Shown here: positions 3,871-57,857 of the stretch, piece by piece | Position numbering within the stretch: position 1 is the stretch's first letter | Layout: every line of letters begins with the position of its first letter | Assembly: GCA_964618295.1 (NCBI GenBank) | Contig: CAZTWV010000010.1 | Location: 5,820 to 69,819 of the forward strand | Reading direction: 5' to 3' | Origin: an uncultured Anaerolineales bacterium | GTDB taxonomy: Bacteria; Chloroflexota; Anaerolineae; Anaerolineales; UBA11858 | Length of the DNA stretch: 64,000 bases | Notes under the pieces: model-generated | Told to the model about the DNA's origin: nothing | The model's input: the letters and a program-made list of their open reading frames with translations, nothing else | Databases searched by the model: none | Made by a program: the position numbers and the translations under genes

Positions 3871-5175
3871 CTATAATTCCTGTCTGGAGCTCTGAATGAC
3901 CTCACAAATATTCATGTTCTGAATAAATGGCTGAAGTCCTACTGCGGTCCAGATTGTAGTAAGGGGTATTAGGGTAATCACATAGCGCTGCCAGGGGACA
4001 GGTTGGAGGAACAACACGCCTAAAAACAATAAAATAGATGTCAATAGAAGGGTAAATATCTTCTTTTTTACCCTATTTTTCTTTCTTGAAAGCTGGAAAA
4101 ATCCATAGATAAATCCGCCTGATGAAATGGTAATCAACAAACTCGCAATAACCTGGTTTCGGCCGAGTGTGTTCAATGAAAAATCTTCATACCGTTGAAT
4201 CTGCCCTGCGATATTTTGATCGTAATTGCCTACATCCGAGTAGCCAAGTGGGGAAAAATACAGGTTTCCAGTTATAGCAAGAACCCTGTAGGGAGTTGTT
4301 TGGAGGATATTTTTGTTTTTTGCTCGATAGAAATCGTTGAGCTGACTTGACTGAAGCTCTTGGATAGTCTTTAGACTGTGTTGAAAAGAATCTATTGGAT
4401 GGGTCCAATAATACGGGTTAAACAACCAGGTAACAATGAAAAATACTCCTGCGTAAGAGATAATTTTATGGATTCGGGTCATGGGCTTGTTTTCGCCATT
4501 TTTAGAGCAGTATACTGCTATAATTCCGACAGGGAATAATAAAAGTAGAATTTGTTTTGCATTAAATGAGCTGGCTGATACTAATCCGGTCAAGAGGGGT
4601 GTGATATTGTCGAGCGTCAGCAACCAGATGAACGCTGAAACACCCAATAGGGCAGAAGCTTCATTCATTGCTCTTCGACCGTGCAAAAGAATTAGTGGAT
4701 TCAAGCCCATCAATAGTACTGATAATAAAGCTGTTGGCTTGCCCCAGACATTCTTAACACAATAGTAAAGAAAAAGATGGGCTGCAAGGGTCATAATAGT
4801 TGTCGTCAATCGCGACATATTAATAACTTTTGATTCAGGAAGGGCTCCCGCTCTAATATTTTCGGTCCAGGATTGTGACCAGTCCCAGTCTTTGTTCGGT
4901 GCCTCTAGGCCTGAAGCTGCTAAAGTCAATCCCAGCAGGTATTTGGTGAGAGGGGCACCAAGCGATCTTAAGAAAGTACGATTCGAATCCTTGTTCATGG
5001 GTGTGTAGGACATGGAGAGCGGATCACTTATCAGAAAATTAAAATCGCTGCTCATGTATATATGGGTACTTTCGTCTGGATGGAATGGAACAGATTGATA
5101 ACCGGAAAGATAAAGTATAGATAGAAATGTGATGACCAAAAAAAAGATCCAATTTGACTTTATAAACTCAGGCAT
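3871..5175 (-). CDS. GT-C fold glycosyltransferase (PMT/ArnT-like, lipid-linked sugar donor)
   Basis: N-terminal TM, then PFHPDE acidic motif in the first external loop; multiple TMs; late PWQRY motif. Confidence 0.7.
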   Translation of the reverse strand: MPEFIKSNWIFFLVITFLSILYLSGYQSVPFHPDESTHIYMSSDFNFLISDPLSMSYTPMNKDSNRTFLRSLGAPLTKYLLGLTLAASGLEAPNKDWDWSQSWTENIRAGALPESKVINMSRLTTTIMTLAAHLFLYYCVKNVWGKPTALLSVLLMGLNPLILLHGRRAMNEASALLGVSAFIWLLTLDNITPLLTGLVSASSFNAKQILLLLFPVGIIAVYCSKNGENKPMTRIHKIISYAGVFFIVTWLFNPYYWTHPIDSFQHSLKTIQELQSSQLNDFYRAKNKNILQTTPYRVLAITGNLYFSPLGYSDVGNYDQNIAGQIQRYEDFSLNTLGRNQVIASLLITISSGGFIYGFFQLSRKKNRVKKKIFTLLLTSILLFLGVLFLQPVPWQRYVITLIPLTTIWTAVGLQPFIQNMNICEVIQSSRQEL

Positions 5176-5265
5176 ACGGGTTCCTGGACTGGGTTTTGGA
5201 TTCCTCGTAATCGATTATAAAGGATTGCTGAGGTTTTCGGCTTAAGCTATTAATGGAATTTTGCT

Positions 5266-6897
5266 ATGAATTCTAAGGATAAAAAAGCTGTTGTTTCTAT
5301 AGGAATCCCTGTTCTTGTCTCTTTTGTATATAAACTTGTATTGATTTGGATCGATAGAATCCCATTCAATTCTGATGAAGCTATTGTTGCCTTGATGGCT
5401 CGCCATATTCTTCAGGGCGAGTTTCCGGTCTTTTTTTATGGGCAATCATACATGGGCAGCCTGGATGCCTTCCTGGCAGCGCTTGGATTTTATATATTTG
5501 GCGAAGAGGTCTGGGTCATTCGTTTTATTCAGAGTATCTTGTATCTCGGTACTGTTTTGATAACTGTTATGCTGGCCAGACAGTTATTTTCTTCTCACAA
5601 GGTTGGTTTGTACGCTGGAATTCTTGCAGCGATACCGGTTGTAAACGTCACTCTTTATACAACTGTTAGTCTTGGGGGGTACGGCGAGGCTCTCCTGATT
5701 GGTAATTCACTGCTTTTATTAGCTCTCCTGATTGGTCGGCGGGAATCAAGGGCGGCAATTAGTGACCCCGGCTTTTCCGGCCTGTTAATCCTCTGGGGGG
5801 GGCTTGCAGGAATTGGTTTCTGGGTGATGGGTTTGACATTGATATATGCTGTTCCTGGAGCGGTACTTATTTTCTGGCAACTAGCTGAGAAAAAAAATTC
5901 CAAACAGATGATTATGAGTTTAATGATAATAAGCCTAGCGTTTGCAGCCGGTTCATCACCCTGGTGGATAACAGCAATCAACTCAGGGGTTTCCGAATTT
6001 GTTTCAGAGATGTTTGGGAGTGCGGTATCTGTAAGTCGATTTCCTAAAATGCTCGCTCCTGTTCAGAGGTTTTCGAATTTTCTGCTTTTGGGGGGAACTG
6101 TGATTTTAGGAATGCGTCCCCCCTGGGATGTGGCCTGGCTTATGCTTCCATTGATACCAGGAATTCTTGTCTTCTGGTTTTCTGTGGCCTATAAAGGTCA
6201 CAATTTACTAAAGAAGGAGATACACAGAAGACAAATCTATTTGTTACTGCTTGGGCCGATACTGATTTTAGTCTTGACATATGTTTTTACGCCGTTTGGG
6301 TCCGATCCATCTGGGAGGTATTTTGTTCCCTTTGTTGTCCCTCTATCCATCTTCGCCGGGACCTTTATTTCAAAACTGGACTTTTCAAGAGCGGCTTGGA
6401 AACCAGTGCTCTTGGGAGTTGTAATTATTTATAACCTGGGGGGGACAATTCAATGCTTGAATCAGTATCCTCCAGGATTGACCACTCAGTTTGATCAAGC
6501 AGCTCAAATTGACCACAGACCGATTGGAGAGCTTATAGAGTTTTTAACGGATAATGATCTGGCTGCTGGTTATACAAATTACTGGGTTGCATATCCGCTG
6601 GCGTTTCATTCAGGCGAAGACTTGGTCTATCTTCCCAAACTGCCGTACCATCCTGATTTTCGATATACTGAAAGGGATAACAGGTATACCCCCTACAGCC
6701 ATGTTGTTGAAAAATCAAACAGCCTATCGTATATAATTCCGGATTTCCCTGAGCTTGAGGATTACCTTGAGGACTCATTGCGTTCACGAGATATCAGTTG
6801 GAAAGAGCGTAGAATTGGTGAGTATCTAGTTATATATGATTTGAGTCAAACCGTCAGGCCGAAGGATATTGGACTGGGAATAACAACAAATCCATAA
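5266..6897 (+). CDS. GT-C fold glycosyltransferase (ArnT/PMT-like)
   Basis: FNSDEAIVALMARHIL loop motif after TM1, FYGQSYMG, many TMs, GRYF motif, C-terminal soluble domain. Confidence 0.75.
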   Translation: MNSKDKKAVVSIGIPVLVSFVYKLVLIWIDRIPFNSDEAIVALMARHILQGEFPVFFYGQSYMGSLDAFLAALGFYIFGEEVWVIRFIQSILYLGTVLITVMLARQLFSSHKVGLYAGILAAIPVVNVTLYTTVSLGGYGEALLIGNSLLLLALLIGRRESRAAISDPGFSGLLILWGGLAGIGFWVMGLTLIYAVPGAVLIFWQLAEKKNSKQMIMSLMIISLAFAAGSSPWWITAINSGVSEFVSEMFGSAVSVSRFPKMLAPVQRFSNFLLLGGTVILGMRPPWDVAWLMLPLIPGILVFWFSVAYKGHNLLKKEIHRRQIYLLLLGPILILVLTYVFTPFGSDPSGRYFVPFVVPLSIFAGTFISKLDFSRAAWKPVLLGVVIIYNLGGTIQCLNQYPPGLTTQFDQAAQIDHRPIGELIEFLTDNDLAAGYTNYWVAYPLAFHSGEDLVYLPKLPYHPDFRYTERDNRYTPYSHVVEKSNSLSYIIPDFPELEDYLEDSLRSRDISWKERRIGEYLVIYDLSQTVRPKDIGLGITTNP

Positions 6898-6939
6898 ATA
6901 AATGATCAGGAAATATCTAGCAAAGCAAGGAAAAATAGT

Positions 6940-8424
6940 ATGAAAGGTCCAAAATTTTACGTATCGGTCATGCTTCTCTTGATCTTTATAATGGCTTTGC
7001 GGACACCAATCGACAGCGATATGTGGTGGCATCTACGAGCAGGAGAGAAAACAGTCACTGAAGCAGCGCCTTACATGGTTGATGATCTCTCGCACACTCG
7101 CCTGGGGGCGAGATGGATAAACCACAGTTGGATGGCTCAGGTGGTCATGTATTGGATCTACAAACTGGGAGGTCTTCGGGGAATATCACTCTGGGTCGGA
7201 ATAACAGTTGTGTTAACATTTTCGATTGTTTATCTTCAGTCAGAAGGCGGACCACTAATAAAAATTTTTGTGCTGTTGCTGGCGGCAGCTGTATCAAGCA
7301 CAGTCTGGACCCCTCGGCCGCAAATGTTTTCTCTATTCCTGTTTGCTTTATTGAACTATTTGCTTGCTCAATATCTAAGAAATCAAGTCAAAAAGCCCTA
7401 CTTTCTAATTCCGCTTTTTGTTATTTGGTCAAATCTTCATGGGGGATATGCTCTTGGGTTTATGTTGCTGGGGGTTTATTTAATTGGGGCGATGATTGAC
7501 TTTGTAATAGGAAATAGTCGAGAGTTAACTTTTTACAGCAAAAAAACCTGGGAACTTTCCTTGTGGGGACTTGTTAGCTGGATTGCGGTATTGATCAATC
7601 CGAATGGGATCGGGATGTGGAAGATTCCATTTCAGACTGTAGGAGTTGAGACCCTCCAGCAGTTGATTGGAGAATGGGCTTCTCCTGATTTCCATCAGCC
7701 ACTGCAGCAGTTATTTTTAGTGCTAATGTTTCTGGCTTTCGGAGTGATTGGTTTTTCGAGAAAGAAGCTCAGAGGTCAAGAGTTTATGGCCGTCTTCGTC
7801 TTTGGAGCTGCAGCGCTGATTGCAAGAAGAAACTTTGGCCCTTTCGCTCTCGTTACAGCACCTGTGATTTGCAGACATGGGCAGGACATTTTACAAAACC
7901 TGTCCGAGCGGGCAAAAGAACGTTTGAACTGGTTTGAGAAAATTTTGAATTATCAGGAAAAATCAAAAAGAGAAATCAATCCAAAATTACAAACCACCAT
8001 AAATTGGCTGGTAATAGCAGCCTTGGTATTTGCTTCAGCGGCAAAACTGATCAAGGCTACAGAGCCGGAATTTGTTCAGGACGCTTTGGCCAGGTATTAT
8101 CCGGTCAGTGCGGTTGAATGGATTAAGGAAAATCAGCCAGATGGGCTGATGCTAAATTCATATAATTGGGGAGGGTATTTGATCTGGCACCTGCCTGAAT
8201 ATCCAGTCTTTGTGGATGGTAGAACAGATTTATATGGCGACGAGATTTTACGAGAATGGCTGGATGTGGTGAGAGGCAATCAGGGATGGGAGAAAACGCT
8301 TGAGAGCAAAAATATTAAACTGCTTATTCTAGAGGTAGACCAACCGCTTATCGCCGAAATTGACAGTACGGATTGGATTAATGTTTATAAAGATGAGTCA
8401 GCAGTAATTTTCACGAAGCATTAA
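6940..8424 (+). CDS. Multi-pass membrane protein, probable GT-C glycosyltransferase
   Basis: DSDMWWHLRAGE, WINHSW, RPQMFS, WSNLHGGY and VFVDGRTDLYG motifs; polytopic. Confidence 0.65.
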   Translation: MKGPKFYVSVMLLLIFIMALRTPIDSDMWWHLRAGEKTVTEAAPYMVDDLSHTRLGARWINHSWMAQVVMYWIYKLGGLRGISLWVGITVVLTFSIVYLQSEGGPLIKIFVLLLAAAVSSTVWTPRPQMFSLFLFALLNYLLAQYLRNQVKKPYFLIPLFVIWSNLHGGYALGFMLLGVYLIGAMIDFVIGNSRELTFYSKKTWELSLWGLVSWIAVLINPNGIGMWKIPFQTVGVETLQQLIGEWASPDFHQPLQQLFLVLMFLAFGVIGFSRKKLRGQEFMAVFVFGAAALIARRNFGPFALVTAPVICRHGQDILQNLSERAKERLNWFEKILNYQEKSKREINPKLQTTINWLVIAALVFASAAKLIKATEPEFVQDALARYYPVSAVEWIKENQPDGLMLNSYNWGGYLIWHLPEYPVFVDGRTDLYGDEILREWLDVVRGNQGWEKTLESKNIKLLILEVDQPLIAEIDSTDWINVYKDESAVIFTKH

Positions 8425-8440
8425 GTTGAGATAAAAATCT

Positions 8441-10717
8441 ATGCCCTCTGAAAATCAATTATCTCGAATACAAAAAATAGATTGGCGTTTTGTTTTCAAG
8501 AATTCATTTTATTACCTGTTATTGATCTACTTGCTGTTAGCAGGCAGCCGAGGGGAATTAATTGCGAGAGAACTTGCAATTTTTTGGATCGATCTGATTC
8601 TGCTGTTTATTTTTGTTCTGATTTGGTTTCAGAAGATGTCACTACCCAGAGTCGAGCTTATTGACAGTAGACCGATCTATATATTTATGGCATTTATCGT
8701 TTTTGGATTTTTTTCAACCCTGCTCAATGATAGTTTGTGGAAATCAATAACGGATTTATTTGTCTGGGGTGCAGCTTTGTTTGCTATGTTGTTTTTCCAA
8801 TTTTTGCGCGGGAGCTGGAAGCAGATCGAGTTATTAGATCCAATCCTGGTACTAAGCTCAGTATTTCACACTGGGAAAATTGCTGGTTTTTTGCACTGGA
8901 TGATTGATTGGGCCCGCTATCTTCCAGGACAATACCAATACTTATTTAAATATCGAGGAGTTTCCCCAAACATTTCGTCTGCATTTGCAAATATTATATT
9001 CATTATTGCCTTGACACAAATCTTAGTGAATAACGAGAACAGAACTAAATGGATTTATTATTACACATCCGCCTCTGCTTTAGCAGTAATAATGATCTCA
9101 GGTTCGCGTGGAGGATTGATTGGCTGTGTGGTAGGGTTGAGTGCTGTTTTTTTAATCCGGTATTTTGTTCGGTTCGGCGAAAAACAAAAAAAACGAAAAA
9201 ATATATTAACCGCAATGATCTTGATGATGGGTTTACTTGGATTGGGAGTGATATTTTACTTTTCCATGAAAAGCGGGCGGGTTGGTTTGGCGGATCGGTT
9301 TGAGTTTTGGGTAGTGGCAGTTCAAAATTGGATTAAAAACCCATGGTTTGGTTCTGGAATAAACACAATTGGGGCTGAGATTCTCAGTATTCGGTCTGTT
9401 CCTCCAGTCCAACTTCACACACATGCCCATAATCTTTTCTTAAATTTGCTCAGTGAAGTTGGTTTGCTGGGTTTCTCAATATTCCTTGGCTTTACCGGAT
9501 ATTCAGTTTATCAATATTTACGGGAATACATTAATCATTCGGCACCGATGGCTCTAGGGTCCCTGGGAATGATAGCGGTCATCTTTGGGCACGGGTTGGT
9601 GGACACATTGTATATCGAGCCTTTTATTTTGTTCACCTGCTTATTGATTTTTGGAATTACAGCTCCAAAAGGAGCAAAAATTAATTCTATTGGGAAAGGA
9701 GCGGTTAATCTATTTTTTTGTGGGATTCTCGGAGTAGGTTTGTTTCTTGGAATTCATAAGAATCTATACGGGCGGGCGCTGAATTCTTTTGAGAGCGGTG
9801 ATTTTGAAAAAGGTGCAGAGCAGATGTCAAATATCCTTCTCTACGCAAATAAAAATGCCCTTGTTCAGCAGCAGTCGGGGATTTTCTTTAGCTACCTGGC
9901 TGATCAAGAAAGTGATCCTATTCTGAGGAATGATTATTTATTAGCTTCAATTCAGGGATTTGATAAAGCAGCTAGCTTGGAACCAAATTTTGGTGGACAT
10001 CATGCTAACCTTGGAATCATGTATTGGGAATATGGTAGACCGGAAAAGGCATTGGATCATTTAGCCATTTCCACTGTACTTGCCCCGGAATCAGTAATGT
10101 TTGTGCTGAATTCCGGAGTTGTGGCTGAAGAGGTTGGTAAGCTCTCAGCTGCAAAGGAATATTATGGGTGGCTGCTGGATAAAAGAGCCTGGATAGATTC
10201 ATCATTTTGGAAAGAGACGCAATTTAGGCAAAGAATTTTCTATAATTATCAGAAACAACAATGGATAGAGCAAGTGAGTGCGAACGATTCGCCCGAGGAA
10301 ACAGAAAGCCAATCTCAGGGACTTAATATTAGAGATAAAATCAGATATATTGAAGAATTAATTGACAACAATGAAATAGAGTTGGCTTATTTCACCTGGA
10401 ATCAGTTGAGAATGCAGCTTGGAAAAACAAAAAGTTTGGCGGTGGAAATGAAATGGTTAGAGGCTGATTTGGCCGCAGCTCAGGGCGATTTAACGAAAGC
10501 TGTATCAATGGGATCTGAAGCTGTGGATAACTGGCAAGCACAATCCTCTGTGGGCGCGGGGGGAATTGGGTATACAGACTATGGGATGAGATTTTTTCGC
10601 AGCAGTGCATATAAAGAGGATTTGGTTCCTTTTGGAAAAACATTCCCGATTACTGAAACCTGGGAAAGTAGATTAGTTGAATTAGAAGATTGGAAAGATA
10701 AAACCCAAAATGAATGA
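8441..10717 (+). CDS. O-antigen ligase / O-oligosaccharyltransferase (Wzy_C) family protein with C-terminal TPRs
   Basis: SGSRGGLIG, R..FW..A......PWFGSG and HAHNLFLNLLSEVGLLG signature of Wzy_C; TPR-like C-terminus (HANLGIMYWEYGRPEKALDHL). Confidence 0.8.
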   Translation: MPSENQLSRIQKIDWRFVFKNSFYYLLLIYLLLAGSRGELIARELAIFWIDLILLFIFVLIWFQKMSLPRVELIDSRPIYIFMAFIVFGFFSTLLNDSLWKSITDLFVWGAALFAMLFFQFLRGSWKQIELLDPILVLSSVFHTGKIAGFLHWMIDWARYLPGQYQYLFKYRGVSPNISSAFANIIFIIALTQILVNNENRTKWIYYYTSASALAVIMISGSRGGLIGCVVGLSAVFLIRYFVRFGEKQKKRKNILTAMILMMGLLGLGVIFYFSMKSGRVGLADRFEFWVVAVQNWIKNPWFGSGINTIGAEILSIRSVPPVQLHTHAHNLFLNLLSEVGLLGFSIFLGFTGYSVYQYLREYINHSAPMALGSLGMIAVIFGHGLVDTLYIEPFILFTCLLIFGITAPKGAKINSIGKGAVNLFFCGILGVGLFLGIHKNLYGRALNSFESGDFEKGAEQMSNILLYANKNALVQQQSGIFFSYLADQESDPILRNDYLLASIQGFDKAASLEPNFGGHHANLGIMYWEYGRPEKALDHLAISTVLAPESVMFVLNSGVVAEEVGKLSAAKEYYGWLLDKRAWIDSSFWKETQFRQRIFYNYQKQQWIEQVSANDSPEETESQSQGLNIRDKIRYIEELIDNNEIELAYFTWNQLRMQLGKTKSLAVEMKWLEADLAAAQGDLTKAVSMGSEAVDNWQAQSSVGAGGIGYTDYGMRFFRSSAYKEDLVPFGKTFPITETWESRLVELEDWKDKTQNE

Positions 10718-10760
10718 TAGCTGCTAAAACCTTATCCTCTTCGTAGGTCAGTGAAATTAA

Positions 10761-12380
10761 TTGCTTAACTGGTTGTCAAAAATGAACTCAAAATTTCGGT
10801 CAAATGAATCCGTTGAAAAGATAATTTTTTTGATAGCGTTTGGAACTGTGCTTTTGTTGGCAGGTTTCTTGCGATTTAAGAATATTTCCAGCAACCCCGG
10901 TTGGTACAGCGATGAGGGTACACTGGTTGAAATTGCACAAAATCTCCTGACTGGTAATGCGTCCTACCTGGGTTTAAATTCTTCAACTTTGATCGCTGCA
11001 CGACTTCCTTTATTCCCGTGGCTGCTGTCATTGATTTTTAAGATTTTTCCGCAGGAAATACAGACACTGAGATATTTTTCGGCAGGGCTTGGGGTGCTAG
11101 CAACTGCTTTGTTGTACTTCACTATCCGGAACATGGAGTTTAGATCCAGCAATTATTTAGCCCTGGCTGCTGCATTTTTTTATGCAATTTTTCCCCAGGC
11201 AGTACTGTTTAGTCGGATCGGGTTCTCCTACAACCTGCTGGCGCCGATAATAATCATAATTATCTGGATCAGCTGGAAATACCTTGAAAACCCAAAATGG
11301 GGATTAGCTGTCCTGGCAGGATTGATGATTGGAATTGGCAGTTTATCAGATTTGATAATGCTCTCTTTTGTGATTCCAGTCATCTTGATTGTTTTAAGCA
11401 GGGGAATAAAAAATACACTTATATCTGGTTTGGCAGCGTTTGTTCCAATAAGTGTATATGGTATTGCTGGTGTAATAAATAGCCCTGAGGCATATTTATT
11501 TGATGCCGGGTTTACTTTTTTCCGTTTGAGGCAGGTTCCGATTTTAGCTCAATATCCCTGTTCTATAAATTATTTCGTCACTTTGATCGATACTGAATAT
11601 TGGTGGGCCCTTGCCGTTGTAGGTTTCTTTATAATCAGAAATGAACGCTTAAAAAAGATTCTATTGCTGCTGTTTTTATTTCCCCTTCTCTCTTTGGGTA
11701 GAACAACTTGTTATCCCGGGCTGGGCTTGTATTACCTGATCCCTCTTTTACCTTTGGTATCGATAGGAGTTGGGAGTTTATTCGTCTTCGGGATACCTGA
11801 GGTCTTAAGATTTATCAATCAAAGTTTGGATAAATATCTCGATACTCTTGAGTGGCAAAAGGAAAATCGGAAGAAATACAAATTTAGAAAGTTTGTGATA
11901 TTTATTACCTCCTCGATCATAATATTCACCATCGCATTTTCTGTTCCTGTGATAACTCTTACAATGGATCTTTCCCAGGTGAGCTCGAGTTTAAAAAGTG
12001 AATATGAGCCAATTCTTCTAGATCCAATTAAAGGGAGATTAGCCCAGAGTTATATTAATTCAGTAATAGAGCCTGGGGATTTAGTAGTTACCTCCCCTAC
12101 CATCGCTTGGGGGATTGACTCTCGCACGACTGACTTTCAATTGACCCTGGCGTACAACGGAATTGAAACCAAGCATTTTCCACCAGACATCCCGAAAGAT
12201 CGTTTTGATTATTCTTTAGATTACAAATCTGCAACCTATATTGCGATTGATCCTGTCTGGAAAAATTGGGCTGTGCCAAATATGGAAGAAGTAGCAAGCA
12301 TGACAGCTGAAATCGAGCAGTGGCCGTTAGTTTACTTCAATGACCAAGTTGAAATTTACAGGAATCCGGATACAAGGTAA
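10761..12380 (+). CDS. GT-C fold glycosyltransferase (ArnT/PMT-like)
   Basis: LRFKNISSNPGWYSDEG motif after TM1, RLPLFPW, many TMs; start may be ATG 10782. Confidence 0.75.
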   Translation: MLNWLSKMNSKFRSNESVEKIIFLIAFGTVLLLAGFLRFKNISSNPGWYSDEGTLVEIAQNLLTGNASYLGLNSSTLIAARLPLFPWLLSLIFKIFPQEIQTLRYFSAGLGVLATALLYFTIRNMEFRSSNYLALAAAFFYAIFPQAVLFSRIGFSYNLLAPIIIIIIWISWKYLENPKWGLAVLAGLMIGIGSLSDLIMLSFVIPVILIVLSRGIKNTLISGLAAFVPISVYGIAGVINSPEAYLFDAGFTFFRLRQVPILAQYPCSINYFVTLIDTEYWWALAVVGFFIIRNERLKKILLLLFLFPLLSLGRTTCYPGLGLYYLIPLLPLVSIGVGSLFVFGIPEVLRFINQSLDKYLDTLEWQKENRKKYKFRKFVIFITSSIIIFTIAFSVPVITLTMDLSQVSSSLKSEYEPILLDPIKGRLAQSYINSVIEPGDLVVTSPTIAWGIDSRTTDFQLTLAYNGIETKHFPPDIPKDRFDYSLDYKSATYIAIDPVWKNWAVPNMEEVASMTAEIEQWPLVYFNDQVEIYRNPDTR

Positions 12381-12383
12381 ATA

Positions 12384-13571
12384 ATGAGGCAATCAAAACT
12401 CTTCAGGATTGAATCCCTGGAAATCAAAGCTGCTTGGATCTATTTCGCAGCCAGATTAATCCTAATCTTGTCCTTGCCCCTGGATGGTATTAAGTCCTAC
12501 GGGGATTTGTGGAATTTTTTTTCTCAGGCTGAACTCGGATTACCATTCATTAACTATTGGACAGAGTTTCCACCAATCTACCCCTGGATATCAAGATTGT
12601 TATATCAAATTGCTGGAGGGTCACAACATCGCTTTGATTACCTGAATATCCTATTCTTCTCTTTCCTTCAGGCATTGAATTTGTTCTTATTGTTAAAAAT
12701 TTCTGACCAGATTGGGAGAAGCCAAAGTCAGAAGCTGATTGGGGGGGCTGTTTACAGCGGATTGACAATTGGCCTTTTTTACACCTGGGCATATTTTGAT
12801 GTAATTGCAGTTGCGGCTTTGCTGGCAAGTATTTATTTTCTCTTTGACGACAAACCCCACAAGGTTGGTATATTAATAGCTGGTGGCGTTTTGACAAAAT
12901 GGTTTCCCCTGGCTTTGATCCCAGGTATTTGGAAAACAAAAAATTGGCGAACTTCGCTGAAGATTTCAATAACGGGAATCGGGATTGCCATATTAGTATG
13001 GGCTGGGCTTTTCTTAATTAATCCAGAAATGACTTCGGCTTCAATCCAATCCCAGGCGGTAAAAGGTTCATGGGAAACTGTTTGGGCGTTGTTGGACGGC
13101 AACCTCAACACAGGAAATTTTCCAAATGAGGTCAATCGATTGGACCCTGGTTCAGTTAATTTGAGTTCAAATAACCCCAGTTTGATACCTTCCTGGATAA
13201 CATTGATCGTGTTCGGCGGAGCTGGATTGATTCTTCTGATTCAATCCAAAATCAATACTAGAAAGGAATACCTTGCGTTCTCCGGGCTTACATTTGTGAT
13301 TATGTTCTTGTGGAGTCCCGGTTACAGTCCTCAGTGGGTGCAGTATTTGCTTCCCGTAATAATTCTAGCTGTACCCGCAAAGCAGTCAGTTTTGTTCTCT
13401 GCGGCACTGATTCTAATCAATCTTGCTGAATGGCCTCTCCTGCTTTCCAGGGGGCGTTTTGAGGATTTGTACTGGTTGATCCCTGTTCGAACTCTGGTGC
13501 TGATCTTGTTGGGGATGATATTCTACCAGCAGACCATAGAAGATCCTGCAATTGCCGGGGGTGTGGATTGA
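12384..13571 (+). CDS. GT87/DUF2029-like membrane glycosyltransferase
   Basis: WTEFPPIY (EYPP-like), FDVIAV, GVLTKWFP and YSPQWVQY motifs typical of the DUF2029/GT87 group. Confidence 0.7.
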   Translation: MRQSKLFRIESLEIKAAWIYFAARLILILSLPLDGIKSYGDLWNFFSQAELGLPFINYWTEFPPIYPWISRLLYQIAGGSQHRFDYLNILFFSFLQALNLFLLLKISDQIGRSQSQKLIGGAVYSGLTIGLFYTWAYFDVIAVAALLASIYFLFDDKPHKVGILIAGGVLTKWFPLALIPGIWKTKNWRTSLKISITGIGIAILVWAGLFLINPEMTSASIQSQAVKGSWETVWALLDGNLNTGNFPNEVNRLDPGSVNLSSNNPSLIPSWITLIVFGGAGLILLIQSKINTRKEYLAFSGLTFVIMFLWSPGYSPQWVQYLLPVIILAVPAKQSVLFSAALILINLAEWPLLLSRGRFEDLYWLIPVRTLVLILLGMIFYQQTIEDPAIAGGVD

Positions 13572-14809
13572 ATCAGCAGAAATATCAACTTCGCTGGTTT
13601 GCACTGCTCCTGATAATAATGGCGCTATTTTTCGTAGGTTTATTGTGGGTAAACTATCAATTTGCTAACTCAGCTGTAGGAAAGGGTGGGTTCATAATCC
13701 GGTATTCAGGTGCAAAGGCATTGTTAAAAAGTGGTCTTAACCCTTATTCAGGGGAGCTTTTGCAGTGGTTTTATCAGCAGCAGTATCAAATTTATTCTGG
13801 GATTGGGGGTGAGAAGTTTGTTTTAGAGATACCCCTTTATTCACTTTTCGTTTATGCGCCCTTAATTTTTTTGAAAAATCCTGTCCATGCTCAGGCAATC
13901 TGGATGATGCTCCAGGAAATTGCGGTGATTGGATTAGTTTTTGTAGTTCTTGACGTATACGAATGGTCGCCATCCGCCTGGGTAAAAGGGGTATTACTGT
14001 TTGTTGCTATAGCCTTTTACCATACAATTCAAGGAATAATTGAAGGCGGCTTATTCATACTTGTTACCTTACTGCTTGGCTTGATGCTGAAGTGCATCAA
14101 AACGGGACAGGATGAACTAACTGGATTGATCTTGGCTTCCATGCTTATTACACCAGCAACAAGCGCTGGCGTGATAATTTTTACTTTGTTTTTTGGTGTT
14201 TTCCAGAAACGCTTCCGGATAATTTTTACTTTCTTAGGTGCTTTTGGAGTATTGTTCGTTGTGAGTTATTTCGTTTTTCCCGGATGGCTCCTAAACTATA
14301 TTCGGGTTCTTTTTGTAGGAGGTCATTTCAATCCAGGACAAGCACTTGCAGGAAAAATCGCGCAGATCACCCCCGGTATTTTTTCCCAGCTTAGGTTAAT
14401 ACTTCTAATGGGTTTTGGAGGACTGCTGCTGCATGAATGGTATTCATTCAAAAGGGCTCAGTTTGACGGTTTTTTGTGGTGCGTGATGGTAACTGCCGTG
14501 ATTGGAAGTTTTTTAATTCCTGGAAAGAATTCAACATCTTACATCTTACTTATACCTGGTTTAATGCTTATAATGCGGGGGATTTATTCAAGGTGGTCTA
14601 ATGCAGGTGATTGGATAGTGGTCATGTTGTGGGTGTCAGCTTTTGTTATTGTTTGGTTGGTTTTTTTGATTTCTGGGCAGGAAGTATATTTTCCAATGCA
14701 AAAAGAGATAATGTTTTTTGTTGTGCCCGTGATGGGTTTGATTGGTTTGTATTGGATTAAGTGGTGGGTTTTGCTGCCTACCCGCTCAATCCTGGGCCGG
14801 GATTTATGA
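13568..14809 (+). CDS. GT87/DUF2029-like membrane protein (divergent)
   Basis: A.ALLKSGLNPYS and PLYSLFVYAPL..L....AQAIW pattern; polytopic; 4-bp overlaps with both neighbours. Confidence 0.55.
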   Translation: MNQQKYQLRWFALLLIIMALFFVGLLWVNYQFANSAVGKGGFIIRYSGAKALLKSGLNPYSGELLQWFYQQQYQIYSGIGGEKFVLEIPLYSLFVYAPLIFLKNPVHAQAIWMMLQEIAVIGLVFVVLDVYEWSPSAWVKGVLLFVAIAFYHTIQGIIEGGLFILVTLLLGLMLKCIKTGQDELTGLILASMLITPATSAGVIIFTLFFGVFQKRFRIIFTFLGAFGVLFVVSYFVFPGWLLNYIRVLFVGGHFNPGQALAGKIAQITPGIFSQLRLILLMGFGGLLLHEWYSFKRAQFDGFLWCVMVTAVIGSFLIPGKNSTSYILLIPGLMLIMRGIYSRWSNAGDWIVVMLWVSAFVIVWLVFLISGQEVYFPMQKEIMFFVVPVMGLIGLYWIKWWVLLPTRSILGRDL

Positions 14810-16368
14810 AAAGTAAAGATTTGATTATCCTGTATGTGCTTGGGATGGCTGTATTGATTGTTGCGGCTAGTTTTCAAAACTCACCTGGTTACATGGATGC
14901 GGAATACTACGCATCCATTGCCAGAAGAATTGCTGGCGGGGACGGAATCACAGAACCATTTGTTTGGAATTATTTAGGTGGGAAGCCGGAATTACCCATG
15001 CCCGCGTTTCAATACTGGAAACCTCTGCCGTCCCTGGCGGCAGCCTTAAGTATGCATCTGTTCCAATCACTGTCATTTAATGCAGGAAGAGGCTTGTTGA
15101 TTCTAGCGGCATCATTTTCGCCGGTTCTGACAGCAATTTTCGCGTATCAATTTAGCGGCGAGAGAAAGATAGCTTTTATTGGGGGTATATTTGCTTGTTT
15201 CCCCGCATTTTATCTTCCATTTTTGACCACAACGGATTCTTTTGCTTTGTACATTCTGGGAGGAGGGGTGATATTCTATCTTCTTAACCGAGATTATTCC
15301 GGATTGGAAGTGATATTGATTGGTGTGGTTAGTGGATTAATGGGGTTAACAAGAGCAGAAGGGTTGATCTGGTTGGGAATTAGCGGGCTTGGAATTCTCT
15401 TAAAAGGAAAGAAAAAGTTTCAAAACTTCTTATTTCTCGGGTTTGGAGCTTTATCAGTCTGGCTGCCATGGACCCTATGGAACCAGTTGGTGCTTGGGAA
15501 TAGTGGAGCAGTTGAGGGACTGAAAACCCTTTGGTTAACATCCTACAATGAAATTTTTTCATACCAGGTGGATTTGATAAATTTTAACTCCTGGGTGGAA
15601 TCCGGGTTTCGATCTATCCTGTTGGACCGGGCATCTTCCACCTGGGCCAATTTTAAAACATTGCTTTTTGTTCAGGGTCAGATTTTACTTGTGCCTTTTG
15701 TTATTGCAGGTTTAATCAAGAACCGGAATAATACAACTGTTCAGGCTGCCTTGATTGGATTGGGAACTTCATTCGCGGTGATGAGCATTTTGTTTCCGTA
15801 TGCGGGCAAAAGGGGCGGGTATTTTCATTCAGGGGCAGGTTGGCAAATCTTTATTTGGGTTTTGAGTGCTTGTGGTTTTTCCGACATAATTAAAAGAGGA
15901 AAACAAGCATTAAACTGGAAAGATCCCAAAGCTTTTGATGTCTTTGGCGCGGGACTGATTGTAATTTTAGCGGCGGTCAGTGCCTATACTGCTTTTGACA
16001 AGTTAGGAGTTGCAGGAGGGCAAACCACGCGGTGGGATCAAGATTATGAAAACTTTTTACTGATTGGGTCTGAACTGGAAAAGATTGGACTTGAAAAAAC
16101 GGATCTCGTTTTGATTAACAATCCCCCGGGATTGTATTTTGCGGCAAATCAGTGGAGTATTGTTATCCCTGACGGGGGTATAGATGATTTGCTTCAAGCA
16201 GCAGAAGATTATAACGCTCAATATTTGATTCTGGAAAAAAACCATCCGGATGGGTTGGATGATTTATACTCCCTGCCCGCGAATAATGAGGATGAGAGAT
16301 TGAAATTTCTGTTCTCCTCTAACGGTAATCATTTTTTCAAGATTTTCCCTGGGGAGGATAGTGGATAA
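14806..16368 (+). CDS. GT-C fold glycosyltransferase (GT39/PMT-like)
   Basis: PGYMDAEYYASIARRIAGGDG, YWKPLPS and LTRAEG motifs; ATG 14806 overlaps the previous stop (ATGA). Confidence 0.7.
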   Translation: MKSKDLIILYVLGMAVLIVAASFQNSPGYMDAEYYASIARRIAGGDGITEPFVWNYLGGKPELPMPAFQYWKPLPSLAAALSMHLFQSLSFNAGRGLLILAASFSPVLTAIFAYQFSGERKIAFIGGIFACFPAFYLPFLTTTDSFALYILGGGVIFYLLNRDYSGLEVILIGVVSGLMGLTRAEGLIWLGISGLGILLKGKKKFQNFLFLGFGALSVWLPWTLWNQLVLGNSGAVEGLKTLWLTSYNEIFSYQVDLINFNSWVESGFRSILLDRASSTWANFKTLLFVQGQILLVPFVIAGLIKNRNNTTVQAALIGLGTSFAVMSILFPYAGKRGGYFHSGAGWQIFIWVLSACGFSDIIKRGKQALNWKDPKAFDVFGAGLIVILAAVSAYTAFDKLGVAGGQTTRWDQDYENFLLIGSELEKIGLEKTDLVLINNPPGLYFAANQWSIVIPDGGIDDLLQAAEDYNAQYLILEKNHPDGLDDLYSLPANNEDERLKFLFSSNGNHFFKIFPGEDSG

Positions 16369-17836
16369 GTCGCGAAGAGTCAAGAAAGAATTTATTCTGT
16401 TTTCTTTATTCGCCCTGTTAGCTCTGGGTGGGTATTTCTTTTGGAGCTCACAGGTCTACAGAATAGGATATCCGCTTGATGACGCCTGGATCCACCAGAC
16501 TTACGCAAGAAATTTTGCACAAACAGGTCAATGGGTTTATTCGCCTGGTCAAACTTCAGGTGGGTCCACAGGCCCAATTTGGGGATTTTTATTGGCAGTG
16601 CTTCATCTTGTTAGACTGCCGGAAATTGCCGGAACGGCTGTTCTGGGTTGGTTCTTACTGATCTGGACAACAGTTTTTACATTAAACTTGGTTCTAGAGT
16701 TTAAACCTGATTTGAAAATACATAGAATATTTATTGGGGGGATTGTAATATTTGAGTGGCATCTGGTCTGGTCAGCAGGTTCTGGGATGGAGACGTTATT
16801 GTTTAGCTTGATAGCTATTTCTGTGATTTATTTGACCGGGAAACCTGATCGCAGCGTATTCTTAATTGGGTTTCTGGCTGGGCTCAGTGTCTGGGTTCGG
16901 CCAGGAGGATTAACTCTGATCGGACCGGTCTTGTTTGTAATGGTGTTTTCAGATCTTGATCAAAAAATTAAAAATATTTCTTATGCGATCACGGGTTTTC
17001 TTACCCCGATAATTCCTTATTTTTTGTTTAATTATTTTGTGGTTGGAGATTTCTGGCCAAATACTTTTTTTGCAAAGCAGGCTGAATACGCTGAACTGCT
17101 AAAGCTTCCATTTTTCAATAGATTCTGGACCGTATTTAACCAACTTCTGGTTGGGGTTGGAATTCTTCTGTTTCCCGGTTTAATTGAGAAAGTAAGGATT
17201 GCCGTCAAATCCAAAAATTGGCAAGTCCTTGGAGCCGCATGTTGGTTGTTTGGGTATTTAGGGATATATGTGTTAAAGCTGCCGGTGGATTATCAGCACG
17301 GAAGGTATGTGATACCTGTGGTACCCATTTATCTTGGACTCGGGCTGGCAGGAAGCGCAGAGATATTTAGTTGGAATTCTGAAATAGCCTGGCGCAGAAT
17401 ACTTGGACGTTTGTTCTGGACAAGCGTGGCGGCAGTCAGCCTGGTGTTCTGGATTAAGGGTGCGGATGCCTATGCCCGAGATGTGGCAGTGATCGAGGCT
17501 GAAATGGTGGAAACTGCTTTGTGGATCAATCAAAACTTAGAAGAAAATGCCGTGATTGCCGCACATGATATAGGCGCCTTGGGATATTTTGGGAACCGGG
17601 AAATCATTGATTTGGCAGGTTTGATAACTCCGGACGTGATTCCAATTATCAGGAATGAAGCGGCGTTATCGGCTTATTTGGATCTGAAAAAAGCAGATTA
17701 TCTGATGACTTTTCCCGATTGGTATCAGCAGTTAAATGACGGGCTTCCTATAGTTTATAGATCTAAAGGTAAATTCGCTCCCCAATTTGGAGCTGAAAAT
17801 ATGACAATTTACAGCTGGCAGTTAAAAGGAGAATAA
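16361..17836 (+). CDS. GT-C fold glycosyltransferase-like membrane protein
   Basis: YPLDDAWIHQTYARNFA, SGMETLLF, VRPGG, PNTFFAK, GRY and DIGALGY...IIDLAGLI motifs. Confidence 0.7.
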   Translation: MDKSRRVKKEFILFSLFALLALGGYFFWSSQVYRIGYPLDDAWIHQTYARNFAQTGQWVYSPGQTSGGSTGPIWGFLLAVLHLVRLPEIAGTAVLGWFLLIWTTVFTLNLVLEFKPDLKIHRIFIGGIVIFEWHLVWSAGSGMETLLFSLIAISVIYLTGKPDRSVFLIGFLAGLSVWVRPGGLTLIGPVLFVMVFSDLDQKIKNISYAITGFLTPIIPYFLFNYFVVGDFWPNTFFAKQAEYAELLKLPFFNRFWTVFNQLLVGVGILLFPGLIEKVRIAVKSKNWQVLGAACWLFGYLGIYVLKLPVDYQHGRYVIPVVPIYLGLGLAGSAEIFSWNSEIAWRRILGRLFWTSVAAVSLVFWIKGADAYARDVAVIEAEMVETALWINQNLEENAVIAAHDIGALGYFGNREIIDLAGLITPDVIPIIRNEAALSAYLDLKKADYLMTFPDWYQQLNDGLPIVYRSKGKFAPQFGAENMTIYSWQLKGE

Positions 17837-17930: not shown

Positions 17931-18992
17931 ATGGTTTTGAAAGACTTTGAAGAAAAAAAGAAAAATACTGAACAGCTGCAGGAGAGTATTGAGTCCAAAA
18001 TAAACCAGGCGAAGCTGAAACTGGAAAATATTACAAAAAAATTAATGCAGAGCCAGCAGGAAGTAGACAAACTAGCACAAAAAAATGTCACCAATTCCAA
18101 CAGCATTCGTAAAATTAAGGATGACCCAGTCGGGTTTAGTAAGGACCAGATCAGGGAAGTATACAACCAGGCACTTGAAGATCAACAGCGCTTATTTGTG
18201 ATGCGAGGGCAAATGGACAAGCTCAAAGGGGAACAGGTCCATCTGCAAGATTTTATCAACCAGATGCAGGAAATTGGAGATTATTTTTTACGGACGCCGA
18301 TGCTGGAAGAAGGGGATGAGGAATTAAATGCAGCGGAATTGATTGAATCAGTGATCCAGGCTCAGGAGGCAGAAAGACATAAACTTTCCCGGAAGATGCA
18401 CGATGGTCCTGCCCAGGCACTTTCAAACTTTATCCTTCAAGCCGAAATAGCCCAGCGGTTGTTTGACATGGATCTTGATCAAGCCAGAGATGAACTAGAT
18501 GAACTGAAAGCTACAGCAAGCTCAACATTTGTGAAAGTACGGGATTTTATTTTCGAGCTGCGGCCAATGATGTTGGATGACTTAGGTTTGGTACCAACTC
18601 TTCGCCATTACATGGAATCATTTAAAGATCAGAATAATTTCGATGTAAACTTTACAGCTACCGGAACTGAAAGACGGCTGGATGGTTATTTGGAAATAAT
18701 GATTTTTAGAGCTGTCCAGGAATTATTAAGCAATGCTACCCGGCACAGTGAGGCCAGTTCAATAAAAATCCATGTTGATACAGGCGAAGAATCAATTTCA
18801 GTAAATGTAGAGGATAATGGTAACGGGTTTGATGCTGAAAAAGCTATGGATGGAAGCATGGGGTTAAAAGTGATCAAGGATCGGGTAGAGATCCTTCAGG
18901 GGGAATTTAATCTTGATACAGCGATGGGACAGGGGACCCGGGTTTCGTTCAGCATACCTGCGGGTACAGAAGGGCAGGGGGTCTTTGCATAA
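17931..18992 (+). CDS. DegS-like soluble sensor histidine kinase (coiled-coil + HisKA_3 + HATPase_c)
   Basis: EAERHKLSRKMHDGPAQALSN H-box, LRPMMLDDLGLVP, FRAVQELLSNATRH, DNGNGF and GQGT motifs; no TM. Confidence 0.85.
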   Translation: MVLKDFEEKKKNTEQLQESIESKINQAKLKLENITKKLMQSQQEVDKLAQKNVTNSNSIRKIKDDPVGFSKDQIREVYNQALEDQQRLFVMRGQMDKLKGEQVHLQDFINQMQEIGDYFLRTPMLEEGDEELNAAELIESVIQAQEAERHKLSRKMHDGPAQALSNFILQAEIAQRLFDMDLDQARDELDELKATASSTFVKVRDFIFELRPMMLDDLGLVPTLRHYMESFKDQNNFDVNFTATGTERRLDGYLEIMIFRAVQELLSNATRHSEASSIKIHVDTGEESISVNVEDNGNGFDAEKAMDGSMGLKVIKDRVEILQGEFNLDTAMGQGTRVSFSIPAGTEGQGVFA

Positions 18993-19038: not shown

Positions 19039-19113
19039 TCCAACTAGCCTGAAAGGTACGCATACACCTTGATGGAAAAACTAATTTTTTTTATTTATAC
19101 TAGGAGGTATAAA

Positions 19114-19260
19114 ATGTTATTTGCACCGAAAGAAAAGGGACAGGGCTTGGTAGAGTATGCACTCATTCTCGTTCTGGTAGCAGTTGTCGTGATTGTTATT
19201 CTCTCCCTGCTTGGCCCCGCGATTGGCGATGTCTTCAGCAATATCGTTTCGGGTATCTAA
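19114..19260 (+). CDS. flp: Flp/Fap family pilin (Tad pilus)
   Basis: AGGAGG RBS then MLFAPKEKG|QGLVEYALILVLVAVVVI; G cleavage site with E+5/Y+6 Flp motif; 48 aa. Confidence 0.95.
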   Translation: MLFAPKEKGQGLVEYALILVLVAVVVIVILSLLGPAIGDVFSNIVSGI

Positions 19261-19310
19261 ACTGATCTTCGGATCTACAGGCGTGTGACCGCCTCCTTAT
19301 GTCACAGTTT

Positions 19311-19340
19311 CAAAACCCTGCTTTCGAGCAGGGTTTTGTT
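19311..19340 (+). terminator. Intrinsic terminator after flp
   Basis: CAAAACCCTGCT-TTCG-AGCAGGGTTTTG perfect hairpin with U-rich tail. Confidence 0.85.
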
Positions 19341-19513
19341 ATCTATGGAAGTAGAACTTGCGAGAAAAATCAAAGTATACAGGATTGATAATTTGATTCG
19401 GGGGTAATTAAGTTATCATATAATTTATCTTGAGTTTGAAGAAACTGAATCAATTGTTCTATAATACGGTAAAATAATATAAAGCAATAATGAAACTAAA
19501 TTAGGAGGATGAC

Positions 19514-20611: not shown

Positions 20612-20650
20612 GCAACAATTGCTTCGATCTAAACTTTTTTGGGGAAAATA

Positions 20651-21883: not shown

Positions 21884-21919
21884 TCCGTAGTAGAAACAAT
21901 TTCTAATAAGGGGCTCAAA

Positions 21920-23323: not shown

Positions 23324-23352
23324 ACTTAGTCAGGCGATTCAGGGTTTAGATT

Positions 23353-24318: not shown

Positions 24319-24333
24319 GAGGATGGAGGATTC

Positions 24334-33888: not shown

Positions 33889-33990
33889 TCAGGGCAGTAT
33901 GGATCTGTGCAAATCCAATTAATTGTTGATACAATTCAGAAAGGTTTCCAAGATGGTTCAGGAAAAAAATTAAGGGTATTAGGGATTATT

Positions 33991-48663: not shown

Positions 48664-48667
48664 CGGA

Positions 48668-55850: not shown

Positions 55851-55866
55851 TAACCAGGTTGAATTT

Positions 55867-57242: not shown

Positions 57243-57278
57243 CAAGGCTGGATTGAAAAATACGGGGGAAAATTAAAC

Positions 57279-57815: not shown

Positions 57816-57857
57816 GCGCGGATATCCTTTAAGCGGTAATTATTTATAGCAGCAGAG

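Follow-up and report, generated by a model that had tools for sequence, protein, structure and literature searches.

Several described systems rely on membrane glycosyltransferases of the GT-C type. In mycobacteria and corynebacteria, the enzyme sets for phosphatidylinositol mannosides (PIM), lipomannan and lipoarabinomannan (LM/LAM) and arabinogalactan (PimE, MptA-C, EmbA-C and AftA-D) contain several different GT-C enzymes that work one after another on a lipid-linked glycan outside the membrane, with polyprenyl-phosphate sugars as donors. The lumenal N-glycan line of the eukaryotic endoplasmic reticulum (ER) comprises ALG3, ALG9, ALG12, ALG6, ALG8 and ALG10 together with the oligosaccharyltransferase (OST) STT3, beside which stand the archaeal and bacterial OSTs AglB and PglB. 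Three-component systems combine a GtrB synthase, a GtrA protein and a GT-C enzyme such as YfhO, GtrC or ArnT, and each GT-C gene usually sits with its own synthase gene. In these systems a polyprenyl-phosphate sugar is made inside the cell, moved across the membrane and used by the GT-C enzyme to decorate an envelope polymer, as described in PMC8035078 and PMC11127046. Here we analyse a stretch of 64,000 nucleotides (the window) from an uncultured Anaerolineales bacterium of the Chloroflexota (assembly GCA_964618295.1, contig CAZTWV010000010.1, positions 5,820 to 69,819), in which nucleotides 3871-17836 encode an array of nine consecutive polytopic membrane proteins, named g1 to g9, eight of them GT-C or GT-C-like. 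The enzyme class is already known; what differs is the arrangement, many GT-C genes standing together with the donor synthases elsewhere, and no description of such a Chloroflexota array turned up in a literature search. The array has, in our estimate, about an even chance of being an extracytoplasmic module for assembling or decorating a glycan, with a lipid-linked or wall-associated envelope glycan as the likely acceptor.

Open reading frames (ORFs) of at least 100 aa were considered throughout the block, and membrane helices were counted by a crude Kyte-Doolittle hydropathy scan. An earlier note on this DNA had described nine consecutive polytopic proteins and nothing else in the block; this is borne out by the ORF list, in which the remaining ORFs are frames nested within the nine, and by the hydropathy scan, which assigns each protein 5-11 membrane helices, where GT-C enzymes have 8-13 (the AlphaFold2 (AF2) models of g3 and g6, described below, are helical bundles with at least 12 long helices). 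The description of eight co-oriented, tightly spaced genes, the last four overlapping, was equally accurate: g2-g9 lie on the plus strand, separated by 42, 16, 43 and 3 nt from g2 to g6, and g6/g7, g7/g8 and g8/g9 overlap. Since methionine 16 of g8 is invariant in 11/11 orthologues, the true g8 start is probably ATG 14806, in an ATGA overlap with the g7 stop codon. In the 3.35-Mb, 130-contig assembly from which the window comes, the crude scan classes 165 of 2737 ORFs (6.0%) as large polytopic proteins, and the array is the longest polytopic run; the runner-up, five proteins long, occupies 43429-52292 of the window. An all-against-all BLASTP search of the nine proteins gave a best E value of only 0.017, so that, as far as sequence comparison reaches, they are not recent paralogues. 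GC content is 0.39-0.40 over g4-g5 and 0.41-0.44 across the remaining block. No operon boundaries could be drawn, because promoter-like sites (40, against 34.2±6.9 in shuffled sequence) and terminator-like sites (19, against 16.1±4.3) are at background level. Coordinates are collected in Table 1.

Table 1. Genes of the array and the features that follow it, in window coordinates
Feature	Position	Strand	Description
g1	3871-5175	-	434 aa; PMT_2-like GT-C candidate; divergent from g2
g2	5266-6897	+	543 aa; PMT_2-type GT-C
g3	6940-8424	+	494 aa; GT-C fold (predicted), unnamed family, STT3/DPY19/PglB-like architecture
g4	8441-10717	+	758 aa; Wzy_C membrane domain and C-terminal TPR repeats; variable cassette
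g5	10761-12380	+	539 aa; PMT_2 family GT-C; variable cassette
g6	12384-13571	+	395 aa; ALG3/PIG-M/PimE-like GT-C (predicted)
g7	13568-14809	+	413 aa; GT87-like GT-C
g8	14761-16368	+	535 aa; ArnT/PMT_2-like GT-C
g9	16361-17836	+	491 aa; GT-C candidate, unnamed Chloroflexota family
DegS-like histidine kinase, cytoplasmic (context, outside the array)	17931-18992	+	HisKA_3 and HATPase_c; no membrane helix
Tad/Flp operon (context)	19114-25284	+	flp 19114-19260, then cpaB, tadZ, cpaF, tadB, tadC

The families to which the nine proteins belong were approached through Pfam scans (cutoffs of 26.1 bits for the GT39/GT83-like PMT_2, PF13231, 25 for the PimE-like GT87, PF09594, and 31.7 for Wzy_C, PF04932), orthologue alignments built gene by gene from related genomes, profile-profile comparison with hhalign, and AF2 models of g3 and g6 compared by Foldseek, VIA-align and, independently of the Foldseek preselection, a screen against 48,161 representative chains. 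In the protein scan only g5 (PMT_2, 49.4 bits) and g4 (Wzy_C, 67.1 bits) pass a Pfam cutoff on their own. For hhalign, shallow genus-only alignments gave mostly weak links and were superseded by deeper alignments from 45 long loci (at least 20 kb). PDB sequence searches with g5 alone and with profiles of g3, g8 and g9 returned nothing relevant.

The g3 protein provides the clearest structural result. It has no Pfam match in the window, and none of 19 family members matches any glycosyltransferase Pfam family; at least 2716 homologues were found, of which the best 120 are without a Pfam family and are named only 'hypothetical'. Its AF2 model (pLDDT 88.4, pTM 0.88) gave 29 Foldseek matches at E≤1e-3, all GT-C enzymes among the matches listed. 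VIA-align placed STT3A first (Z 19.8, 445 of 494 residues aligned, rmsd 4.3), followed by yeast STT3 (19.5), AglB (17.5), DPY19 (17.0), Pmt4 (16.3, membrane part only), PglB (16.1) and ArnT (14.9), and the search of representative chains yielded 21 matches at Z≥8, all of them GT-C enzymes or OST C-terminal domains. Residues 382-494 match the isolated AglB-S2 globular domain (Z 8.6) and the C-terminal domain of Campylobacter jejuni PglB (Z 7.0). These comparisons firmly predict a GT-C fold for g3, closest to those of STT3, DPY19 and PglB, and the model displays the OST architecture of a GT-C membrane domain followed by a C-terminal mixed alpha/beta domain. This architecture does not by itself imply an OST, because ArnT, too, aligns along the whole of g3. 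Neither STT3 (PF02516) nor STT3-PglB_core (PF21436) matched g3 when the genome was searched in six frames at E≤10, and the g3 profile found no counterpart among PDB sequences. Besides its first-loop acids, treated below, g3 has an invariant E245 and an invariant W410-G-G-Y-L414 directly after the last membrane helix. The acceptor-binding motif of OSTs is WWDYG, from which the W-G-G-Y of g3 differs as read in the sequence.

For g6, the window protein scores 17.9 bits against GT87, below the cutoff, and among its orthologues 8/15 match GT87 (best E 6.6e-7) and one matches ALG3. For g7 the score is 21.2 bits, likewise below the cutoff, and 15/15 orthologues match (best E 4.5e-13); the Longilinea counterparts of g6 and g7 reach 29.7 and 39.0 bits. 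GT87 motifs were among the features listed in the earlier note; the two window proteins stay below the threshold, but since their orthologues match, the two families can be regarded as GT87-like. The AF2 model of g6 (pLDDT 84.4) aligns best with ALG3 (Z 25.7), glycosylphosphatidylinositol (GPI) mannosyltransferase I (24.9), PIG-U (23.5), ALG6 (21.8) and PimE (21.1), which firmly predicts an ALG3/PIG-M/PimE-like GT-C fold. The g7 protein is only 26-32% identical to its orthologues in the genus, lower than its neighbours show, and its assignment to GT-C, made from sequence, is well supported. The earlier note had staked its proposal on a GT-C fold, and that expectation came through in both models made, those of g3 and g6.

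Five further proteins are linked to PMT_2. The assignment is firm for g5, which also matches the Agl23 family weakly, and good for g2, whose PMT_2 score is 25.0 bits in the protein scan (below the cutoff) and 28.6 bits in the six-frame scan (above it), and which is tied by hhalign at 96.5% to a 509-aa array family whose single scanned member (Longilinea, L090:6830-8362) scores 47 bits against PMT_2. For g1, g8 and g9 the support is indirect. PMT_2 scores for g1 are 21.8 bits (protein) and 25.0 bits (six-frame), both below the cutoff, and hhalign relates it at 91.5% to the g9 family and at 95.1% to a 667-aa array family (F5). No Pfam or NCBIfam match was found for g8, whose nearest Atlas clusters (score 0.99-1.0) are Chloroflexota 'ArnT family' and PMT_2-bearing ones and which hhalign relates at 97.8% to g9 and at 93.9% to g2. 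The NCBIfam putative glycosyltransferase model LA_3751/LA_3752 gives g9 36.6 bits against a cutoff of 200, and 29/30 of its nearest Atlas clusters are unnamed, the other having PMT_2 in 38% of its members. Overall, the hhalign links that connect g1, g2, g8 and g9 with a PMT_2-positive family are at 91-98%.

The remaining protein, g4, matches Wzy_C over residues 211-349 and has weak C-terminal TPR matches; TfpM scores 32.3 bits against a cutoff of 600. The arginines and histidines expected in the external loop of Wzy_C proteins are conserved, R223, R280, R286, H326, H328 and H330 being invariant in 4/4 sequences. From sequence, g4 is firmly placed among Wzy_C enzymes of the O-antigen ligase, polymerase or O-oligosaccharyltransferase (O-OTase) type, its exact activity being putative. 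Thus eight of the nine proteins announced as GT-C enzymes are GT-C or GT-C-like, and the ninth is of the Wzy_C type, as the ligase mentioned in the earlier note itself. Neither the ORF list nor the Pfam scan shows a GT-A/GT-B enzyme, a nucleotide-sugar enzyme or a flippase among the ORFs of at least 100 aa in the block, in agreement with that note. The likeness to Wzx/Wzy clusters is correspondingly small, as had been proposed: of priming transferase, cytoplasmic GT-A/GT-B enzymes, Wzx and Wzy, only the Wzy_C protein is present, and no ORF of this size beyond the array genes supplies the rest.

Acidic residues in the first extracytoplasmic loop, where GT-C enzymes have their catalytic base, are conserved through most of the array. 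A short N-terminus and one helix precede the motifs in the hydropathy scan, and the motifs read HPDEST in g1, FNSDEA in g2, PIDSDMWWH in g3, WYSDEG in g5, GYMDAEYY in g8 and PLDDAW in g9. In the orthologue alignments HPDEST of g1 (D34, E35) is invariant in 4/4 sequences, N35/D37/E38 of g2 in 10/10, D51/E52 of g5 in 4/4, D41 of g6 in 15/15, M45-D46-A47-x-Y49-Y50 of g8 in 11/11 and L39-D40-D41-A42-W43 of g9 in 14/14; in g3, D27 is invariant and D25 is kept at ≥90%. The acidic first-loop motifs reported previously are thus present and, in g1, g2, g3, g5, g8 and g9, invariant among orthologues. The window copy of g7 reads GKGGF, with glycine, where 13/14 orthologues read GGNDF, with aspartate. In PimE the loop aspartate D58 is the catalytic base, and the D58A and D58N variants are inactive, as described in PMC12041525. 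By analogy, the loop acids of g1-g3 and g5-g9, including the g7 position with respect to D58, would be equivalent to the catalytic residues of the solved enzymes.

The absence of sugar-synthesis genes holds for the block, but not for the genome, which encodes candidate polyprenyl-phosphate-sugar synthases and GtrA-like proteins elsewhere. The genome has 18 GT2 matches; six of the proteins have 1-2 predicted C-terminal membrane helices and four have the pair, as in GtrB/ArnC-like enzymes. The models for ArnC (219 bits) and PgfS (264 bits) each match one of these along its entire length, and others are AglJ-like or dolichyl-phosphate hexose transferase-like, all below the equivalog cutoffs. An AglJ-like GT2 gene lies within the window at 56499-57242, 39 kb downstream; the other synthase candidates are on other contigs. 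Two GtrA-family matches stand beside other PMT_2 genes, and the 17 PMT_2-like six-frame matches are spread over many contigs, with small clusters that have their own GT2 or GtrA neighbours. Whereas GT-C loci elsewhere in the genome have such partners, no GT-C gene of the block is accompanied by a GtrB/GtrA gene of its own. The genome thus encodes GtrB/ArnC/PgfS-like GT2 enzymes and two GtrA-like proteins as in the three-component systems, from which the locus differs in that eight GT-C genes stand together without a synthase.

Conservation was followed within the genus and beyond it. Of 36 further genomes from this genus, 18 have an orthologue of the kinase that follows g9, 16 a strong g9 orthologue and 19 a tadZ orthologue, and the DNA beside the kinase contained array genes in 18/18 genomes fetched. 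The genus order is a TPR protein (minus strand), g1 (minus strand), g2, a g3 paralogue, g3, a variable middle, g6, g7, g8, g9 and the kinase, and then flp, cpaB, tadZ, cpaF, tadB, tadC, a comF-like gene and hpf. The GT-C proteins of the array are 26-52% identical to their genus counterparts; in the first four same-genus genomes fetched, identity is 67-92% for CpaF to TadC and 53-80% for CpaB and TadZ. A profile scan of species-representative genomes with g9 found at least 589 relatives, and loci were counted from the best-scoring 80, all of them Anaerolineae, which include the cultured Longilinea arvoryzae KOME-1 (locus L090) and metagenome-assembled genomes labelled Ornatilinea, Bellilinea, Leptolinea and Anaerolinea. 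With the 10-kb flanks used, in which outer genes are under-counted, g8 precedes g9 in 72/73 loci (those with at least 1.7 kb upstream); among the 57 loci with at least 9 kb upstream, g7 is found upstream of g9 in 55, g3 in 31, g2 in 23, g6 in 16, g1 in 14, g4 in 6 and g5 in 2. The kinase follows g9 in 59/65 loci, and cpaB and tadZ follow the array in 35/53. The 45 loci of at least 20 kb gave g8 in 45, g9 in 45, g7 in 42, g3 in 23, g2 in 18, the 667-aa and 509-aa families in 17 each, g6 in 13, g1 in 8 and g4 in 4. In 201 evenly sampled Chloroflexota genomes, strong g9 orthologues were present in 12/13 members of one family of the same order and 0/5 of another, and sporadically elsewhere. Co-conservation in related genomes, on which the earlier note had also let its proposal depend, is therefore seen in the 18/18 same-genus regions and in the 80 Anaerolineae loci, which keep the genes together.

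The middle of the array behaves differently. The g4 protein is only 28-30% identical to its genus counterparts, and strong g5 orthologues occur in 4/24 same-genus genomes drawn, plus G041, with a fragment in G051. In G013, G002, G003, G018 and G020 the g4-g5 position is taken by 5-7 kb of other genes, which in G013 include a WecG/TagA-type transferase and an MptE-like protein. As judged from gene content, the array consists of a stable core (g2, g3, g6, g7, g8, g9 and often g1) and a replaceable middle cassette, represented here by g4 and g5. As a separate observation, eight loci without adjoining Tad genes (L051, L060, L064, L081, L095, L097, L104 and L113, at ~4.5-7 kb) have an opposite-strand gene for a soluble carbon-nitrogen hydrolase between g3 and g7.

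Array, kinase and tadZ are jointly missing from 15/36 same-genus genomes. This was considered as evidence of coupling between the array and Tad and was rejected, because unrelated neighbours go missing too: in 5/5 genomes tested (G007, G010, G016, G048 and G049, 91-96% complete), which lack array, kinase and tadZ, neither HPF nor GTP cyclohydrolase I (FolE) was detectable. From its gene content, the genus seems to comprise two groups.

Downstream of the array, 1.2 kb past g9, begins a complete Tad/Flp operon that the earlier note had not mentioned, with Pfam matches (19069-25284) to Flp_Fap, RcpC, Response_reg plus ParA, T2SSE and twice T2SSF. The pilin gene starts at ATG 19114 and encodes MLFAPKEKGQG, then a 37-residue mature pilin with three serines; a strong terminator-like hairpin follows flp at 19311-19338. 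The sequence MLFAPKEKGQG, followed by LVEYALILVLVA...GPAIGN[VI]F[ST], hardly varies among the 50 copies compared, which come from the window and 46 fetched loci (47 sources), and this conservation across Anaerolineales far exceeds that of any neighbouring protein. The F-[ST] near the pilin C-terminus was considered as a glycosylation site and dropped, as it resembles a general feature of Flp pilins. The kinase follows g9 irrespective of Tad; many loci have a LuxR-type response regulator gene between the two, and the window has none. A conserved Tad cluster of Anaerolineales was described by Xia (2016; PMC4877987), in whose main text, supplements aside, the word 'glycosyltransferase' does not occur.

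A role confined to the pilus appears unlikely, because Tad follows the array in just 35/53 loci and because one genome combines a decayed Tad operon with an intact array. In the other 18/53 loci different genes come after the kinase, the next gene in Longilinea being that for phosphofructokinase. In 5/5 genomes without adjoining Tad genes a tadZ orthologue is present elsewhere, and neither a polytopic run nor a match to an array protein was found near the detached tadZ within 16-20 kb on the CpaB side. In G003 (L050 = G003:C2, 11600-19100) the kinase, cpaB, tadZ, cpaF, tadB and tadC lie in 2-5 frames or contain 1-11 stops, and g4-like, g6, g7, g8, g9, comF and hpf are each in one frame and stop-free (a wider g9 span counts one TAG). 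These comparisons of gene content suggest that the array does something for which the pilus is not required.

Taken together, these findings are best accommodated by an extracytoplasmic module that assembles or decorates a glycan. In such a module each of g1-g3 and g5-g9 would transfer a sugar from a polyprenyl-phosphate donor at the outer face of the cytoplasmic membrane, and g4, as a ligase or polymerase, would work on an undecaprenyl-diphosphate-linked unit. GtrB/ArnC/AglJ-like GT2 enzymes would supply the donors and GtrA-like proteins would handle them, both being encoded elsewhere in the genome. The acceptor would be a lipid-linked or wall-associated envelope glycan of the monoderm filaments rather than the Tad pilin specifically, and the middle cassette would vary the glycan between species. 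What we infer are the donors, the successive work of the enzymes on a single product and the kind of acceptor; the acceptor is probably lipid-linked or wall-associated because the structures nearest to g6 (ALG3, GPI mannosyltransferase I and PimE) act on lipid-linked glycans, as described for PimE in PMC12041525. The earlier note had proposed either a lipoglycan or pilin or S-layer glycans as the product. Its pilin option is weakened by the 35/53 adjacency, by the five detached Tad loci (CpaB side) and by G003, and the lipoglycan option is drawn from likeness of fold to enzymes with lipid-linked acceptors.

The mycobacterial and corynebacterial sets offer a close precedent for such a module, with several GT-C enzymes working in turn outside the membrane, an order of events that would apply here by analogy. 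The g6 model resembles PimE, the g6 and g7 families match GT87, and the window also contains a gene for inositol-3-phosphate synthase. The present locus differs in that g6 and g7 of the window stay below the GT87 cutoff and in that the host, whose genome yielded a single CDP-alcohol phosphatidyltransferase (PimA not having been searched for), belongs to the Chloroflexota. It also differs in that up to nine genes form an uninterrupted run without donor-synthesis genes; the mycobacterial AftA/Emb genes are clustered with genes for D-Araf precursors, as described in 10.1101/2020.04.19.049825.

Several points weigh against this interpretation. The GT-C assignments of g1, g2, g7, g8 and g9 are made from sequence, through sub-threshold HMM or profile-profile links. 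The window copy of g7 may be inactive or retargeted, because the conserved first-loop aspartate is replaced by glycine. Synteny within one order can persist without shared function, the 80 g9 loci were taken by score, not drawn at random, from at least 589 relatives, and G003 is a single metagenome-assembled genome. Finally, a protein acceptor stays live because g3 is near STT3, DPY19 and PglB, because g4 has a domain as in pilin and protein O-OTases and because Tad adjoins the array in 35/53 loci.

It is accordingly possible, although rather unlikely, that the array is a protein glycosylation system for the Flp pilin, for Tad or for other surface proteins, in which the OST-like g3 or the PglL/TfpO-like g4 would be protein-directed and the other GT-C enzymes would build or extend the glycan. 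Precedent exists in the pilin glycosylation enzymes (TfpW; TfpO/PilO, PglL and TfpM), GT-C or Wzy_C enzymes beside a type IV-class pilin gene; TfpW, a GT-C enzyme with a DDX motif whose gene adjoins pilA, adds arabinose to a type IVa pilin, as described in 10.1101/2020.04.19.049825. The Tad/Flp operon next to the array here and at 35/53 loci, the g3 model with its AglB/PglB-like C-terminal domain, and the Wzy_C domain and weak TfpM match of g4 all fit such a system. However, the pilin enzymes act singly and on type IVa pilins, and nine enzymes seem excessive for a 37-residue Flp pilin with three serines. The Caulobacter Tad pilus shows no extra density attributable to glycan, as far as the cryo-EM map is described in PMC10710030. 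Moreover, 18/53 loci have no Tad genes after the array, the five detached Tad loci have no GT-C genes on the side covered, and the array is kept in G003 where Tad has decayed. The STT3 and STT3-PglB_core models do not match g3, and the closest structures to g6 work on lipid-linked acceptors. The TPR protein encoded upstream (1449 aa in the full contig) was considered as a secreted acceptor and dropped, as the hydropathy scan shows no membrane helix in it.

That the nine genes share no pathway, and that independent GT-C enzymes with unrelated substrates have only a neighbourhood in common, we regard as distinctly unlikely. The nine are not detectably paralogous and come from several families, the genome has its 17 PMT_2-like matches, further small clusters come with GT2 or GtrA neighbours, g4 and g5 come and go between species, and the background level of promoter- and terminator-like sites defines no operon. 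Yet the order g7-g8-g9 is kept (55/57 and 72/73 loci) despite divergence to 28-45% identity, start and stop codons overlap through g6-g9, and GtrB/GtrA partners, present at GT-C loci elsewhere in the genome, accompany none of the GT-C genes of the block.

A bacterial counterpart of the ER-lumenal line, in which g3 would transfer a lipid-linked oligosaccharide en bloc to proteins and so found a large, unnamed Chloroflexota STT3-like OST family, is in our view a long shot. Here g6 and g7 (ALG3/PimE-like) and g1, g2, g5, g8 and g9 (PMT_2-like) would extend the lipid-linked oligosaccharide. Likeness to that line and to AglB/PglB is one of fold, g6 resembling ALG3 and g3 resembling STT3, together with the first-loop D-x-D of g3 and its C-terminal domain; g3 differs in having no STT3 Pfam membership and W-G-G-Y instead of WWDYG. 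It is very improbable that several members share the GT-C fold but have no catalytic role (acting as scaffolds, lipid-carrier handlers or PIG-U-like subunits) in a block serving mainly the export or organisation of an envelope polymer, for although the window g7 has lost its first-loop aspartate, g5 weakly matches the 'flippase activity-associated' family Agl23, and the top structural matches of g6 include PIG-U, a GPI transamidase subunit outside the GT-C family despite the shared fold (as described in PMC12041525), the first-loop acids are invariant in orthologues of g1, g2, g3, g5, g6, g8 and g9 and the aspartate is kept in 13/14 g7 orthologues.

An array kept across Anaerolineales and composed almost entirely of predicted extracytoplasmic glycosyltransferases provides a handle on envelope chemistry, and the cultured Longilinea arvoryzae carries it. 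Mats, sediments and wastewater sludge are rich in Chloroflexota filaments, whose envelope is poorly understood; 10.1101/2025.08.19.671072 describes an envelope with no lipopolysaccharide pathway and with layers of unknown polysaccharide or protein make-up. The array also reveals at least two large families, those of g3 and g9, that are unnamed in domain libraries, that of g3 having, in the model, OST architecture. What is new here is the evidence gene by gene, the OST-like predicted fold of the g3 family, the division into core and cassette and the apparent independence of the array from Tad.

Other features of the window were noted in passing. A second run on the plus strand, at 43429-50995, encodes four large polytopic proteins (515, 705, 530 and 775 aa); the GT-C family YfhO is matched by two of them, and the other two are mutual paralogues (E 5e-50) with no Pfam match. 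The paralogues are related by hhalign at 91.5% to the g9 family, and members of their family lie inside the main array in 2/45 other loci. At 33907-35070 a gene for inositol-3-phosphate synthase (527 bits against an equivalog cutoff of 638) adjoins a YkuD L,D-transpeptidase gene, and the minus strand at 40124-42601 encodes an 825-aa STAND NTPase with NACHT and HEAT repeats. Two overlapping minus-strand ORFs at 60294-61476 (294 and 194 aa) both match MFS_1, as if a transporter gene had been split by a frameshift or in assembly. The region 55479-58676 encodes Roadblock/LC7, V4R, the AglJ-like GT2, a small Ras-like GTPase (ATP_bind_1/Ras) and DUF4388, a set reminiscent of MglA/MglB-type polarity modules.

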